Origin: Candidatus Izemoplasmatales bacterium | GTDB taxonomy: Bacteria > Bacillota_I > Bacilli_A > Izemoplasmatales > Hujiaoplasmataceae | DNA length: 64,000 nucleotides | Direction of reading: 5' to 3' | NCBI GenBank assembly: GCA_050177605.1 | Contig: JBFXGX010000002.1 | Coordinates: forward strand, 88,114 to 152,113 | Shown: piece by piece, positions 57,001-63,000 of the stretch | How the letters are laid out: each line of letters opens with the position of its first letter | How positions within the stretch are numbered: the stretch's first letter is position 1 | Position numbers: made by a program

Positions 57001-60000
57001 TCATTCAGAAGCTTCTTTCAAAAGGGTTTCAATATCAAGATATTATCAAGATACTCGAAAGGAGCAACTCATGAAAAAAGGTGTCAGCGAAGCAGATCTA
57101 TATTTGTTTAATGAAGGCAAGTTAAAAGAAGCATACAGGCATTTTGGAGCGCATGTTGTTAAAGATGAATTAAACCAAATTATCGGTGTTAATTTCACTG
57201 TCTATGCCCCTCATGCAAGAATCGTATCGGTAGTTGGTGATTTTAATTCATGGGACTCTAGAAGTCATGTGATGACGAAAGTGGATGAAGCTGGTGTATT
57301 TTCGATTTACATCGAAGGACTCGGTGAATGGACGAGATATAAATACTGTATCGTCACAAGCTATGGCCAAACCATTTTTAAAGCAGATCCTTATGCTTAT
57401 TTCTCAGATGATCGACCTGAAACTAGTTCTAAAGTCTACGATCTAGATGGGTATTATTGGCATGATGAGAAATATCTTGAGACCCGAAAAAGTAAAAATT
57501 CAAAAGAAGAGAAACTATCGGTTTATGAAGTCCATTTAGGTTCTTGGATGACAAAGCCAAATGGTAGTTTTCATAAGTATAATGAATTAGTCAACTATTT
57601 AATCCCTTATATAAAAGCGCATGGATTTTCACATATTGAATTGATGCCGATTGTAGAACATCCACTCGATGAATCTTGGGGATATCAAGGGACAGGTTAT
57701 TACAGCGCAACATCGAGATATGGTGTTCCTAAAGACTTAATGTATTTTATTGATGAGTGTCATAAAGAAAATATCGGTGTGATTCTCGATTGGGTTCCAG
57801 GACACATTTGTAAAGATGCTCACGGATTATATATGTTTGATGGTGAGCCACTCTATGAGTATGAAGATTATAACATTCGTGAAAATATCGTTTGGGGAAC
57901 AGTTAACCTCGATTTAGGAAAAGGAGTAACGAAGAGTTTTTTGATTTCAAATGCTCTTTTTTGGATGAATTATTTCCATGTCGATGGATTTAGAATCGAT
58001 GCCGTCAGTAACATTCTATATTATCTTGGTAATTCAAGTATTGGAACGAATTATGGCGCGATTGAATTTCTAAAGAATTTATCTTACGCCATTAAAGAAC
58101 AAGACCATTCAGTATTGTTATTTGCGGAAGATTCGACCACTTATCCTAATCTCACTACAGGTGTTCTTGATGGTGGAATCGGATTTGATTATAAATGGAA
58201 TATGGGGTGGATGAATGATACACTTCGTTATTTCGAAAAAGATCCTATTTACCGAAAATATCATCATAACTTAATCACTTTCGGAATGGTTTACGCGTAC
58301 TCTGAGTCGTTTATTCTTCCGCTTTCTCATGATGAAGTAGTTCATGGGAAACATTCTCTTGTATCCAAAATGCCTGGGGATTACTGGCAAAAGTTTGCGA
58401 ATTACAGAGTCCTACTCGGACTTCAGTTTACTCACCCTGGAAAGAAACTACTATTTATGGGCGGAGAGTTTGCGCAAATGCATGAATGGAAAGATAAGGA
58501 TGAACTCGATTGGTTTTTACTAGAGTATCCAATGCATGAACGAGCAAATCGTTTTGTTAGAGACTTAATACAAGTCTATAACTATCACAAAGCCCTCTAT
58601 GAATTAGATCATCATCCTGATGGTTTCCGTTGGATTGAACAAACCAATGTAGATCAATCTATTTTCATTTTTTCTCGTCATGGCAAAAATGAGTTCGATT
58701 CTTGTGTCGTTGTTTTAAATATGACGCCGAATGCGTATGATCATTATCAAATAGGTGTTCCATATAAAGGAGCGTATGAAGAAGTACTCAATTCAGATAA
58801 AGATATCTATGGTGGCTCTAATATTTACAATGGAGCCAGCCTCTATTCTGTAGATGAGTCGATTCATTCCTTACCGCAATCAATTTGGATTAAAGTTGCA
58901 CCTTTATCCATCACCATATTCAAATATATAAACGAAAAAAATCTATTTAACGAATAGAGTTGAACGTATGAAAAAAACAATCGTAGCGATGATTTTAGTG
59001 GGCGGTCAAGGCTCACGACTGAAAGAAATTACAAAAGACACAGCCAAACCAGCTGTGTCTTTTGGTGCGAAATATCGTTTGATTGATTTCACCTTAAGTA
59101 ACATTACAAATTCAGAAATTGATGTGGTTGGTCTCGTGACTCAATATGAGCCTTATGATTTGATGAATTACATTGGCTCTGGAGCATCATGGGATTTGGA
59201 TGTCAATGATGGTGGTGTTCACTTTTTAACGCCTTTTGCGCGAAATGGTGATGTCTTGTGGCAAAGAGGTACAGCGCATGCTGTAAAGCAATACTTTAAT
59301 TTCGTGAAAGAATATCAAGCTGATTATGTGCTGATTCTTTCAGGAGATCAAATCTATAAAATGGATTATCAAAAGTTATTAGAACATCATCTAAAACAAA
59401 AAGCAGAAGTCTCCATCGCTTGTACGAATGTTGAATTTAGTGAAGCATCGAGATTTGGTATTTTAGAAGTTGATGAACGTGGATTTGTGACTGGATTTGA
59501 AGAAAAACCGTCGCAGCCTAAATCAACACTTGCCTCTATGGGGCTTTATCTTTTCCAAGCCACTGCGCTTGAAAAACTGCTTCAGAATATCGAAGCTGAA
59601 GATGAATTCGATTTTGGTAAAAATATCATTCCTAAAAGTTTAAAGGAAGATTACGTTGTTACTGCGTACACTTTCAATGGCTATTGGAAAGATGTTGGAA
59701 CGATTGAGTCGTTATATCAAACCAATATGGATTTGCTTGATAATCCAGATTTTTTGACTTTGAATACATCGAAGAGTTTACCGATTTATTCAAAATCACT
59801 CAATCTACCTCCTCATATGGTTTTTCAAAATGGCAATATCAAGAAATCAATCATTGCGGATGGATGTCATATCGATGGAAATGTTTATCATAGTGTGATT
59901 GGATACGAATGTCGTCTAGCACGCAATAGTTTTGTTCGTGATGCCGTTTTACTGCCAAATGTAGAAGTAGGCGAAGGCGCAAGACTTCAAAATTGTATTG

Positions 60001-63000
60001 TGAATAAAGGCGTTCGTATTCCAAAAGGGTACTTTTTAGAGCCAGATCAAATAACTCTTGTCGACACATCAAACTTGCTGAAGGTAGGTGAGATTCGTGA
60101 ATAATCTATTTATGGTCGTCGATGCGTCAATCAAAGGTAGTTTTAATAAATTGACCAGACATCGTATGCCCGGAGCACTCCCTTTTGGTGCGAAGTATCG
60201 ATTAATTGATTTTACATTATCCAACTGCAAGAATTCTCATATATCCAATGTGGCAATTTTTCCCTATGGGAATTATCGGTCCTTGTCCGACCATATTGGT
60301 TCAGGTGACCGATGGGATTTGAATCGAAGAAGAGATGGAATTTTTATTCTTCCTCCGAAAAATCAAAACTTAACTATTGATGATTCGATTAGTTTTCAAC
60401 GGATGTATGAACATATTGAATATTTCTTAAGAAGTAATCAAGAGTATGTAATCGTTAGTCCCGCAAATATCGTGTGGAATATTGATTATCAAGTATTACT
60501 TCATAGTCACTTGGTTGAAAATGCCGATATTACAGAAGTGCTATCGAGTGATCATAAGCGAATTAAAACATTTATTTTATCAAAGAAATTACTTCTTGAT
60601 TATATTATGCATTATGATTCCATCCAATATCGTAATTTATCGGATGTTTTTGATTATGCTCCGAAGTTAAAAAGGAATCCTTATATCTTTACTAACGCTT
60701 GTTTTTATATTGAAAGCCCCTATGATTTATATACAGCCAATATGCAATTATTATTACCAGAAATTAGAAATCAATTATTTCATAAACAACGTAGTATCCT
60801 TTCAAAAGAGACAATGTCTGCCGCATCGAGATATACAGAAGACTCAAGTTGTAAAAATTCGATTGTTGCTTCTGGAGCCATTATTGAAGGCCACGTTGAG
60901 AATTCCATTATTGGTCGTAAAGCCCACATTAAAAAAGGTGCGATTATTCGGAATAGTGTCATCATGAATCAATGTAATGTGGAAGAGAACGCTGTTGTTG
61001 AGTACGCAGTCCTAGACAAAGAGACCCATGTGTTAAAAGACGCAAATGTACATGGAGATTATCAACATTTATTCGTTTCAGAGAAGAAACAAATCGTAAT
61101 TTCTGATCAAGAAATTAATGTTGTTCAAATTGCCTCAGAGTGTTGGCCTTTTATCAAAACTGGTGGCTTAGCGGATGTAGTTGGATCTTTAGCTGAGAAC
61201 TATGCGTATCAAGGAGTAATCTCTTCAGTGATGATGCCTCTTTATCCTAAAATTAAAGAAAAATATTCTTTATTTTTGGAGCCTAGAGTAGATATTTCCA
61301 TTGCTTATGGCGATGATACTTATAAAACATCAATCTATTCCTATGTCGATAAAAACACGGTCTATTATTTCGTTGAATCTTACGATTTCTTTGATCGTGA
61401 AAAAGTCTACGGTTATCAAGATGATGGTGATAGGTTTGCGTTTTTTAATCTTGCTTGTGTGAGGTTTATTGAAATTCTCGAAATTGAACCGAATATCATT
61501 CACTTGCATGACTGGCATACAGGACTGATTCCGCTGATTTTAGCAGAAAGCTGTAAAAAAGAAATATTGACTTTGATGACGATTCATAATATTGAATATC
61601 AAGGAGTTTCTGATGCCGCCATCCTAGAAAAACTAAATCTTAAGTCCGTGACTAGTGAACATAATACGATTAATTTCTTGGAACTTGGGTTATCTCATGC
61701 GACCAATATTTCAACAGTATCCGAAACCTATAAGGATGAGTTAAAATATGAGTATTACAGTAAAAATCTTGTCGATATTATCAATAAACGAGAAAGAGAT
61801 TTTTATGGTATTCTTAATGGGTTGAATGATGAAATCAATCCAAAGAAAGATTTAACCATTTTACAAAAATATAATTTAATTAATGTGTTTGAAGCAAAAA
61901 AAGCGAATAAACTTGATCTCCAACAAAAGGTTGGATTAAGACAAGGAGAACAGTACTTTATCGCTGGCATGGTAACGCGCATTGTCGAGCAAAAAGGTTT
62001 TGATATTTTAATTCAAGCCCTCGATGAGTTTTTAGAGGATCCTTCTACTGAATTTGTCATATTAGGGACTGGCGATAAGAAGTATACGGATAGACTTGAA
62101 ATAATCAAAGCTAAATACGGTGACAGAGTGAGTTTAAATCTTGTATACGACGCAACTGAACCAAGTTATATTTATGCTGGCGCTGATTGTTTCTTAATGC
62201 CTTCTCGCTATGAACCTTGCGGTATTGGACAGATGATTGCTTTAAAATATGGAACCATCCCTATTGTAAGACAAACCGGAGGGTTAAATGATACTGTGGA
62301 TCATTTTGATGCCCTTACAAAAAGAGGGAATGGTTTTAAATTCTACAATTATGACGCACGAGATTTGCTGTTCCAAATGAGGCATGCAAACTCGCTCTTT
62401 GTTAATCAAAAAGTTGTTTGGAAGCAATTAATCATCAACGCGATGAACTCTAGATTTTCTCTTGAAGATAGCGCAAAATCATATATTGAATTATATCGAA
62501 TGATGCTTTCAAAAAATAGGAATCAGTAACCGTTATCATATGGTTACCATTAAGAAATGCATTCACTTTATGATAAAATGACTTTGGTGAGGTGTTATAG
62601 ATGAATACAGGAGTATTTAAATCAAAAGAAACATTTAAAAAGGCATTTACAGAACGCTTGAAAAATACCTATTTAACAACAGTAGCAGATTCGAGTGTTC
62701 GTGAAAGATATAATGTACTAGGTACTTTGACGAGAGAGGCCATCGCAAGTGATTGGATGAAAACGAATCAATTACTTGTGAAAAAAGAGAGTCGTCAAGT
62801 ACATTATTTTTCAATGGAATTTTTAATGGGTAGACTAATCACAAACAATCTCATGAACTTAGGTGTTCGTGATGTTTGCGAAGCAGCTTTCAATGAACTT
62901 GGACTAGAGATAAATGAAGTTGAGGCATATGAACCAGATCCAGGACTTGGAAATGGTGGATTAGGTCGTCTAGCAGCTTGTTATTTAGATTCAATGGCTT

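Follow-up and report, generated by a model that had tools for sequence, protein, structure and literature searches.

A regulatory ADP-glucose pyrophosphorylase subunit, GlgD, fused in frame to glycogen synthase GlgA in Izemoplasmatales

The glg operon and its fused reading frame

The window, i.e. the whole 64,000-nucleotide stretch analyzed from a Candidatus Izemoplasmatales genome, carries an operon in the order glgB–glgC–glgD::glgA–glgP, with the following features (window positions).

57071–58957, + strand: glgB, branching enzyme, 628 aa (PRK05402, 805 vs a cut-off of 741)
58968–60104, + strand: glgC1, predicted catalytic ADP-glucose pyrophosphorylase partner, 378 aa (alignment to 5L6S; column counts)
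60086–60104, + strand: Shine-Dalgarno-like AGGTGAG and GTG start at 60097, the start overlapping the glgC stop by 8 nt (sequence)
60097–61098, + strand: GlgD half, residues 1–334, non-catalytic GT-A-like domain and left-handed beta-helix (TIGR02092, tree, residues, fold)
60544–60564, + strand: site of a deletion of about 33–35 residues (spacing between anchors)
61099–61113, + strand: joint of 5 residues, 335–339 (listing of 73 fusion junctions)
61114–62529, + strand: GlgA half, residues 340–810, GT5 glycogen synthase (TIGR02095; alignment to 2QZS and to the E377A mutant 3COP)
62601–64000, + strand: glgP, glycogen phosphorylase (TIGR02093, 598.7 vs 552.9), extending beyond the window

GlgD and GlgA are encoded by one 810-aa frame (60097–62529, + strand), which is free of stops from 60088 or 60097 to 62529, and the protein on record (P0003) has 810 aa. 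GlgD residues 1–334 are followed by the joint and by a GlgA match spanning residues 340–803. The stop-free frame and the 8-nt overlap bear out the preliminary description of a single GlgD–GlgA protein encoded directly after glgC. From this overlap and the Shine-Dalgarno-like word, we infer that translation of the fusion is probably coupled to that of glgC. The scan revealed no terminator between the fusion and glgP, and promoter matches at the locus were below chance (43 vs 52). At the borders of the operon, the glgB start overlaps the stop of recX and an N gap of the contig falls inside glgP.

The register of the joint is constant across the 73 fusion junctions, down to about 40% identity. 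An internal start for a free GlgA was rejected, a start codon with a Shine-Dalgarno-like word lying near the joint in only 2/73 fusions. In the predicted structure of the fusion, whose whole-chain pTM is 0.71, the joint is the inner stretch of lowest confidence, with a pLDDT of 67 at residues 331–340.

The two halves and their GlgC partner

The N-terminal half had been identified as GlgD by the cut-off of TIGR02092. While the score was reproduced (263.6 vs 236.6 for residues 1–337, GlgC models scoring lower at 168.4 and 132.2), the cut-off was rejected as proof of GlgD, since a true GlgC (L163) also passes it with 262.3; the identity of this half thus rests on trees and residues. In the IQ-TREE analysis, it groups inside the GlgD clade, apart from GlgC, with a support of 100/100, in a tree whose GlgD references are all from the same class, Bacillus and Clostridium GlgD being absent. 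The equivalents of R32, K42, D142 and K195 are present as a set in 0/73 fused D halves. We take these residues, R32 being in the G-rich loop, to fulfill the catalytic roles in ADP-glucose pyrophosphorylase (AGPase). The N-half, which lacks both the catalytic and the glucose-1-phosphate residues, thus fails as a GlgC, while its fold matches the AGPases 5L6S and 9XUR.

Three arginine and lysine residues are strictly kept instead: R23, R35 and K308, present in all 73 fused D halves, correspond to R40, R52 and R386 of E. coli AGPase, which form its P1 phosphate pocket according to excerpts of PMC6773804. This triad is found in 26 of the 37 long unfused GlgD and in both of the unfused short GlgD counted (2/2), and the D half also keeps R112 (E. 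coli R130). Regarding the deletion, a hairpin bearing the equivalents of E194, K195 and S212, on the glucose-1-phosphate side, is gone: only 10–11 residues separate the anchors in 73/73 fused D halves, vs 41–44 in GlgC and 44–47 in 36/37 long GlgD. With about 335 aa, the fused D half is therefore unlike the free-standing GlgD chain of about 370 aa with its whole GT-A-like domain, and this pared-down GlgD seems to retain only a scaffold and an effector site.

The C-terminal half scores 451 with TIGR02095 over residues 340–801 (cut-off 328.45), the narrower PRK00654 equivalog cut-offs being missed (best 458 vs 603). Its residues K354, D472, H497, R628, K633 and E706, which are equivalent to E. 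coli K15, D137, H161, R300, K305 and E377, are invariant in 73/73 fusions, so that the earlier assignment of residues 340–803 to GlgA with its catalytic motifs stands. The functional roles of the first five are presumably those of their E. coli counterparts; the E377 equivalent was placed via 3COP. Foldseek aligned this GT-B fold to 2QZS (E 1.9e-35; TM 0.88 on target, rmsd 2.4). Judged by its motifs, the GlgA half is an intact ADP-glucose glycogen synthase, predicted to catalyze alpha-1,4 glucosyl transfer. Where E. coli has S360, fused synthases have Pro (70/73) and free ones Ala or Ser (60/60). We assume that this site belongs to the adenine pocket. Conserved changes specific to the fused form include Y551, N681, P689 and E631.

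The upstream GlgC1 just misses the GlgC model cut-offs (405 vs 424.9 and 462.5 vs 470) and keeps R17, K27, D127 and K180, equivalent to E. coli R32, K42, D142 and K195, while T25 replaces the R40 equivalent. Among partner GlgCs, the catalytic set is present in 75/75 and the P1 triad in 0/75, the second GlgC type having both (19/19). As read from these conserved residues, there is a split of labor, newly seen here, in which the D half would hold an effector pocket without catalysis and the partner GlgC the reverse. In the same genome pairs, partner GlgCs share 60–72% identity and their paralogues 83–85%; the partner thus evolves faster, which could reflect a weakened role.

A dimer model pairing GlgC with residues 1–600 of the fusion (D half and GlgA N-domain) reached a score of 0.87, the best of three controls reaching 0.32; the mark applied is attained by 116/157 solved pairs and by 2/215 mismatched ones, figures which hold only roughly here. 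At least 96% of contacts are shared between model runs, with a partner pLDDT of at least 84, and the modeled interface mainly involves residues 281–298 of GlgC and 240–260 of GlgD, at the beta-helix base known from AGPase dimers. The score may reflect likeness to solved AGPases and is not proof of binding.

Distribution and origin

In 114 of the 150 other genomes of the order, a single frame of 799–928 aa gives a full-length match, in agreement with the initial claim that the fusion is widespread in Izemoplasmatales; in 21 further genomes, partial matches cross the joint within one frame, and for the other 15 no match spanning it is listed. Outside the order, the fusion was found in 12/350 genomes of the class, belonging to two families (4/12 genomes of f7 and 8/10 of f17) and not to three as originally described: the 12 loci considered for a third, from families f6, f10, f12, f19, f24 and f26, have glgA separate, in frame. 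The remaining two f17 genomes have a full-length match but a single TAA at the joint. A search at the phylum level returned matches only from same-class genomes. The fusion is present in named species such as Turicibacter sanguinis and Haloplasma contractile, and glgC lies directly upstream of it in compared loci that extend far enough. As the sequences are kin, residue and genome counts are not independent. In genus g23, no fused operon was found in three genomes and that of a fourth is riddled with stops, showing that the fusion can be lost.

This distribution bears on whether the N-half could be a decayed GlgC duplicate or vestige, or the fusion an assembly or gene-calling artefact. A true GlgC passes the TIGR02092 cut-off, the N-half lacks about 35 residues, and the source assembly comprises 66 contigs, with an N gap inside glgP; nevertheless, such an explanation appears most improbable. 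The N-half belongs to the GlgD clade (100/100) and the same fused frame is present in two complete chromosomes (L031 and L034), in an isolate genome (L060) and in Turicibacter-named protein clusters of 84 and 368 members, a recurrence which led us to reject artefact or read-through. In the databases searched, names refer to just one of the halves ("glycogen/starch synthase", "glycosyltransferase" and, in one case, "GlgD subunit"), and name-based pathway reconstructions can hence miss a half. We found no description of a GlgD–GlgA fusion in the open-access literature, subscription literature and protein-architecture databases being outside the scope of the search.

Phylogenies of either half, and likewise of the partner GlgC, are compatible with a single origin of the fusion: the fused A clade is supported at 99/97 by IQ-TREE (0.54 in the FastTree GlgA tree), the partner C clade at 100/97 and the fused D clade at 98/98, or 85/84 once unfused short GlgDs are included. 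These unfused short GlgDs branch outside the fused ones and also lack the hairpin, which suggests that the deletion preceded the fusion and does not support a loss of the hairpin because of it. In unfused relatives, glgD and glgA abut in frame, two genomes having a bare TAA-ATG between them.

A possible, though not favored, explanation is that a stop was lost by accident between already coupled genes, the complex perhaps forming but the covalent link bringing no benefit. Abutting frames and the existence of unfused short-GlgD operons, three of them in genomes also carrying the fusion, are consistent with it. Reversal would require the simultaneous gain of a stop, a start and a ribosome site; the M1 position is Met in just 6/73 fusions, making re-splitting hard. 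The preservation of the joint register despite identities of about 40% argues against such an accident, as does the conservation of fused D, which exceeds that of GlgC in 1794/2346 pairs, vs 1/561 for long unfused D. In the same genome pairs, however, the conservation of fused D (65–73% identity) does not exceed that of unfused short D (75–79%); this control weakens the idea that fusion slowed GlgD and indicates that much of the excess of D over C identity stems from a faster GlgC1.

Working of the fusion and known systems

Collectively, these data are best explained, with a probability of about 65%, by a regulatory GlgD which carries a working synthase and is paired with GlgC1, the fusion having arisen once and acting as a tether and not as a sealed channel. 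Complementary residue loss, matching clades and the predicted C–D interface make it likely that, as first proposed, GlgC/GlgD is tethered to the synthase; the accompanying proposal of ADP-glucose channeling is not supported, the joint being modeled with low confidence and no GlgC–GlgA contact being named in the complex model. According to this tether mechanism, the D half would pair with the upstream-encoded GlgC by the usual base-to-base beta-helix contact, as modeled, probably leading to a GlgC2/(GlgD–GlgA)2 particle. GlgC would produce ADP-glucose, while the D half, devoid of an active site, would tune GlgC through its phosphate-effector pocket, as GlgD, itself inactive, modulates GlgC in heterotetramers (PMC9093745, in part). 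The two attached synthases would draw ADP-glucose from solution at short range to extend glycogen. The fusion would set a 1:1 ratio and keep the pyrophosphorylase beside the synthase, probably at the glycogen particle. It would have originated when the stop separating the adjoining, in-frame glgD and glgA genes was lost, presumably after the D hairpin had gone.

A more tightly coupled machine, in which the GlgD pocket switches ADP-glucose synthesis together with the tethered synthase, or ADP-glucose is preferentially handed to that synthase, or both, seems rather doubtful to us. If it exists, such a machine would be a natural two-step glycogen synthesizer under effector control, working beside a conventional glgA–glgC pair in a culturable gut bacterium. 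Regarding a shared switch, whereby the effector pocket would also control the synthase or the open/closed state of the synthase would feed back on GlgC, the joint begins 5 residues past the invariant K330 and 27 past the P1 residue K308, the triad is more constant in fused than in long unfused D, and fused A bears its own conserved changes. Such an allosterically regulated bacterial glycogen synthase is nonetheless unlikely, as the low-confidence joint and the pTM point to no fixed D–A docking and the triad is also kept in unfused short D. To our knowledge, moreover, bacterial glycogen synthases are not effector-regulated.

Kinetic channeling, by which ADP-glucose from GlgC would bypass the bulk pool, we regard as quite unlikely. 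Both active sites are, we assume, open clefts, and the GlgA C-domain, which presumably binds ADP-glucose, would be farther from the joint in a GT-B enzyme. The synthase is attached to the non-catalytic subunit, at a beta-helix end distant from the dimer interface, the joint is predicted with the low confidence given above, and the complex model names no GlgA N-domain residue in contact with GlgC, an absence which, as the model itself warns, is not proof. An ADP-sugar hydrolase of the TIGR00052 type, the competitor that channeling would guard against, was not found in this 89%-complete genome, and a second, self-sufficient glgA–glgC pair is present in at least 138/150 order genomes. Here, this second pair is on the minus strand of contig C7, glgA (50669–49221) preceding glgC (49207–47972), in the opposite order to that first reported. 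In favor of channeling, consecutive steps would share one particle through a short joint of fixed length, and database proteins P0226 and P0229 are fusions of GlgA and a catalytic GlgC in reverse order, indicating that a synthase–pyrophosphorylase link arose more than once. ADP-glucose build-up is also reported as lethal in cyanobacteria in a portion of PMC7242066, while the TreS–Mak structure appears, from part of PMC11046441, to exclude channeling in that comparable complex. Tethering as an offset for a high pyrophosphate pool was dropped, a soluble family I PPase being present; the genome also has a membrane PPase and three PFK-family genes, and no family II PPase was found in it. A further gene is presumably PPDK-like, named by sequence features.

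Bacterial glycogen synthesis is usually described as the work of separate enzymes controlled at ADP-glucose pyrophosphorylase. A conserved covalent link between regulatory subunit and synthase makes coupling of both steps directly testable in a little-studied group of bacteria to which the gut microbe Turicibacter belongs. Natural controls are the self-contained glgA–glgC pair and the operons with an unfused short GlgD, some of which share a genome with the fusion.

The division between catalytic and modulatory subunits of GlgC/GlgD is also that of the plant AGPase large/small heterotetramer. Unlike the fusion, the plant enzyme is not covalently joined to starch synthase in the entries compared (9XUK). 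In the Firmicutes AGPase of Geobacillus stearothermophilus, Streptococcus mutans and Ruminococcus albus, adjacent genes in a glgBCDAP-type order similarly encode a catalytic GlgC and an inactive GlgD (from sections of PMC9093745). The D half described here belongs to the GlgD clade and has likewise lost the catalytic residues, but it is about 35 residues shorter, lacks the sugar-phosphate hairpin and runs on into the synthase; none of 12 PDB sequence matches is a GlgD-named chain. With bacterial GT5 GlgA (E. coli 2QZS, A. tumefaciens 1RZU), the fused synthase has in common its fold and six catalytic/binding residues, while it differs by its N-terminal GlgD, its own clade and the Pro at the S360 position. 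TreS–Mak also catalyzes consecutive alpha-glucan steps, as a fusion protein in some taxa and as a complex in others (portions of PMC11046441 and PMC7935935); both its halves are catalytic, whereas GlgA is joined here to a regulatory subunit, making the tie to the first step indirect. Finally, the GlgA–GlgB fusion of Waddlia and Estrella is likewise an in-frame glg fusion involving glycogen synthase, although, as far as the consulted text of PMC7935935 describes it, it combines the synthase with an inactive branching half in a decaying pathway without glgC, unlike GlgD–GlgA, which is kept in three lineages within a complete operon.

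The fused gene and its distribution

On the plus strand of the window, the gene order is secA-prfB-(membrane protein)-recX-glgB-glgC-[810 aa]-glgP, in which the glg genes and recX were named by profile matches and secA and prfB by their sequence features.

60097-62529, plus strand: GlgD-GlgA fusion, 810 aa (GlgD half, residues 1-334; joint, 335-339; GlgA half, 340-810)

A stop-free frame spans positions 60088 to 62529, and the gene starts at a GTG (60097) located behind AGGTGAG and overlapping the glgC stop, which yields the 810-aa protein on record. Residues 1-337 score 263.6 against TIGR02092 (cut-off 236.6) and residues 340-801 score 451 against TIGR02095 (cut-off 328.45), bearing out the one-frame GlgD-GlgA protein of the preliminary description. 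The AlphaFold2 model of the fusion (pLDDT 89.7, pTM 0.71, 113-row alignment) matches 2QZS, the glycogen synthase of E. coli, as well as the AGPases 5L6S and 9XUR; inside the chain, confidence is lowest at the joint (331-340, pLDDT 67). Because a true GlgC reaches 262.3 on TIGR02092, passing this cut-off proves little for GlgD; as far as sequence goes, the identity of the N-terminal half is settled by two trees, in which it groups with GlgD apart from GlgC (100/100; 53 and 34 rows, from 245 plus later additions, with three long-branch rows excluded from the 34-row tree).

A GTDB contig scan retrieved 71 loci, mostly titled Izemoplasmatales and including two complete chromosomes and the isolate Liberiplasma polymorphum; both halves lie in a single ORF at 70 of them, the remaining locus beginning beyond the joint. 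Locus L046 has the fusion broken within the GlgA half into frames of 538 and 312 aa, by a frameshift or an assembly error. In most fused loci, as at window positions 51766-57074, glgB is directly preceded by secA, a prfB frame without interruption and recX, the last of which overlaps the glgB start.

Among the 150 other genomes of the order, a full-length match in a single frame was obtained for 114 and a partial one that crosses the joint for 21; the remaining 15 had no listed match. Thirteen of these 15 were inspected: the contig ends inside the gene in three, the gene is full of stops in one (G075), and no match to the fused gene was found in nine, two of them 99% and 96% complete; none of the 13 showed an intact split glgD/glgA pair. 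In G075 (C8:9754-12104; genus g23), both the fusion gene and the upstream glgC are interrupted by many stops, and the glgA-glgC pair is kept in g23; this genus has mostly lost the fused system.

Outside the order, the fusion occurs in 12 of 350 genomes of the class (two candidates scored per genome, ORF read in 7 of the 12), namely in families f7 (4/12) and f17 (8/10), so that its presence beyond the order stands and the three families previously claimed become two. Among identical or clustered proteins (clusters of 84 and 368), the names given are Turicibacter sanguinis, T. faecis and T. sp. HGF1; a protein of 803 aa named Haloplasma contractile has the same architecture. The GlgD half gave 298 matches among proteins of 445-1418 aa; all of the 120 listed contain a GT5 domain, and their names give one half only, or none. 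A phylum search returned the same class only, absence beyond it resting on word-limited searches.

Joint and origin of the fusion

Long GlgD, the unfused form with a sugar-phosphate hairpin, terminates at the strand equivalent to K330-V334; five residues then precede the GlgA Met1 position, a register constant over the 73 listed junctions. This position is Met in 6/73 fusions and a start codon has an SD-like word close by in 2/73, and one chain is therefore expected. The fused GlgA halves form one group (99/97; tree of 46 of 133 rows), as do the partner GlgCs encoded directly upstream (100/97) and the fused GlgD halves (98/98 in one tree, 85/84 in the other). Deletion of the hairpin is common to two kinds of unfused short GlgD:

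L109:4318-6783 and L110:3920-6400 (f17): 341-aa unfused short GlgD, single in-frame TAA directly before the glgA ATG
L191:9027-12927, L190:13723-15908 and L192:3569-5730 (f7): second operon, besides the fused operon in three genomes; glgC followed by an unfused GlgD of 338 aa and an enolase-like gene

In L109 and L110, an SD-like word is encoded within the short-GlgD tail, and their genomes showed no second glg pair. The gene beyond the f7 pair is enolase-like by its sequence features; in L191, a glgA lies upstream of the pair. Both kinds of short GlgD branch outside the fused halves (94/97 and 90/95), the GlgC of the second f7 operon groups as sister to the partner GlgCs (99/96), and this second operon is the closest unfused relative of the fused one. 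The simplest order of events would be loss of the hairpin first and of the stop second. A fusion followed by two splits is also conceivable, and would agree with the five-residue tail of both unfused short GlgDs, which has the length of the joint.

Residue conservation and proposed assembly

A preliminary description had placed an unfused glgC-glgA pair on contig C7; the pair is there, in the opposite order.

C7 47972-50669 (L001:7973-10670), minus strand: second pair, glgA then glgC

Some 2.7 kb downstream of this pair is a PPDK-like gene. The C7-type GlgC keeps both catalytic and effector (P1) residues and is found in at least 138/150 genomes of the order and also in f17. With 61-89% in full-length matches, its conservation within the order far exceeds that of the operon GlgC.

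E. coli numbering was transferred through the 5L6S alignment and columns were counted over all complete, distinct ORFs, excluding those open at the locus end or with N runs (e.g., L111); the sequences being kin, counts describe conservation, not independent trials. R32, K42, D142 and K195, the catalytic set of AGPase, are all kept by partner GlgCs (75/75) and second-type GlgCs (19/19), and by none of the fused GlgD halves (0/73), all 73 of which lack a stretch of about 33 residues that covers E194, K195 and S212. The synthase half keeps the equivalents of K15, D137, H161, R300, K305 and E377 in 73/73. At P689 (62161-62163; E. coli S360, at the adenine pocket), Pro occurs in 70/73 fused synthases versus Ala or Ser in 60/60 free ones, and may alter nucleotide-sugar handling. 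The allosteric P1 triad R40/R52/R386, as given in PMC6773804, is complete in 73/73 fused GlgD halves, 0/75 partner GlgCs, 19/19 second-type GlgCs and 26/37 long unfused GlgDs; R130 is likewise invariant in fused GlgD. GlgD is more conserved than GlgC in 1794/2346 fused pairs versus 1/561 long-GlgD unfused pairs, largely because partner GlgC is faster rather than GlgD slower, as the same-genome control indicates (60-72% identity for partner GlgC, 83-85% for its paralogue). Partner GlgC scores slightly below the GlgC cut-offs.

GlgD is inactive and modulates GlgC within heterotetramers (PMC9093745), and AGPase dimers form via the beta-helix base and tetramers via the N-domains (PMC11046441). The complex model of GlgC with fusion residues 1-600 scored 0.87 versus 0.32 for the best control, the score mark, roughly valid here, being reached by 116/157 solved and 2/215 mismatched pairs; contact agreement is at least 96% and partner pLDDT at least 84. 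The predicted interface is the beta-helix base, with no GlgA residue named in it. As like complexes are already solved, the model shows likeness rather than binding. Taken with the complementary losses of residues in GlgC and GlgD, it favors a C2(DA)2 particle, in which GlgC would dimerize with the GlgD halves of the fusion; each GlgD would serve as scaffold and sensor and bear one synthase on the beta-helix end that points away from the interface. Tethering of GlgC/GlgD to the synthase is thus considered likely (probability about 0.65). A covalent link without benefit, itself compatible with tethering, is a tentative alternative, and shared allosteric control of pyrophosphorylase and synthase a slim possibility. 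The fusion would fix stoichiometry and location, from which alone no channel would follow. Channelling of ADP-glucose to the tethered synthase, proposed previously, was not borne out and appears unlikely: no GlgA residue is named in the modelled interface, and two reasons for channelling are removed, since no TIGR00052-type ADP-sugar hydrolase was found in the window's genome (89% complete) and the same genome encodes a soluble pyrophosphatase. Against it also stands the TreS-Mak complex, whose structure, per PMC11046441, appears to exclude channelling there.

Comparison with other fusions

Open-access titles and abstract openings yielded no description of a GlgD-GlgA fusion (subscription papers and supplements may mention it), and the open-access literature nothing on Turicibacter together with glgD; GlgD is absent from the accessible part of the 2024 review PMC11046441, and PMC10395257 mentions neither "fusion" nor "Turicibacter."

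A protein search gave 61 matches for long GlgC-containing proteins. Several forms are known from protein records alone: P0226 and P0229 (964-967 aa), related GlgA::GlgC proteins of reverse order with catalytic GlgC motifs and a linker of about 60 residues, independent of GlgD::GlgA; the singleton P0266 (876 aa), GlgC::partial GlgA; and GlgC::GlgD and GlgB::GlgC forms. L111:5413-7350 (G168) is a 645-aa GlgC::GlgD-like frame with an N run, adjoining glgA in frame, and similar proteins of 726-786 aa include P0221 and P0224. In P0240-P0248, P0250 and P0256-P0260 (1046-1122 aa; P0244 named Xiamenia xianingshaonis), a branching-enzyme or amylase-family domain is joined to GlgC; one such cluster includes a 403-aa stand-alone GlgC, and an annotation effect is thus possible. 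In P0261-P0263 (810-840 aa), a GlgC-like domain is accompanied by the Pfam domains PAS and response regulator. Two GlgC/GlgD-like matches lie side by side at G534:C1:495302-497568, in a genome of 0.8 Mb that has TGA read-through codons; this is unusual in its family (2/68 matched).

Fusions around the ADP-glucose/synthase step thus seem to recur sporadically in sequence data. GlgD::GlgA is a real, conserved fusion of two known proteins, apparently undescribed so far; its chemistry is ordinary, and it would be surprising to a glycogen specialist and is testable in cultured species. The fusions described in the accessible part of PMC11046441 are GlgA-GlgB, MalQ-GlgB and TreS-Mak, of which GlgA-GlgB is termed exceptional in PMC7935935.
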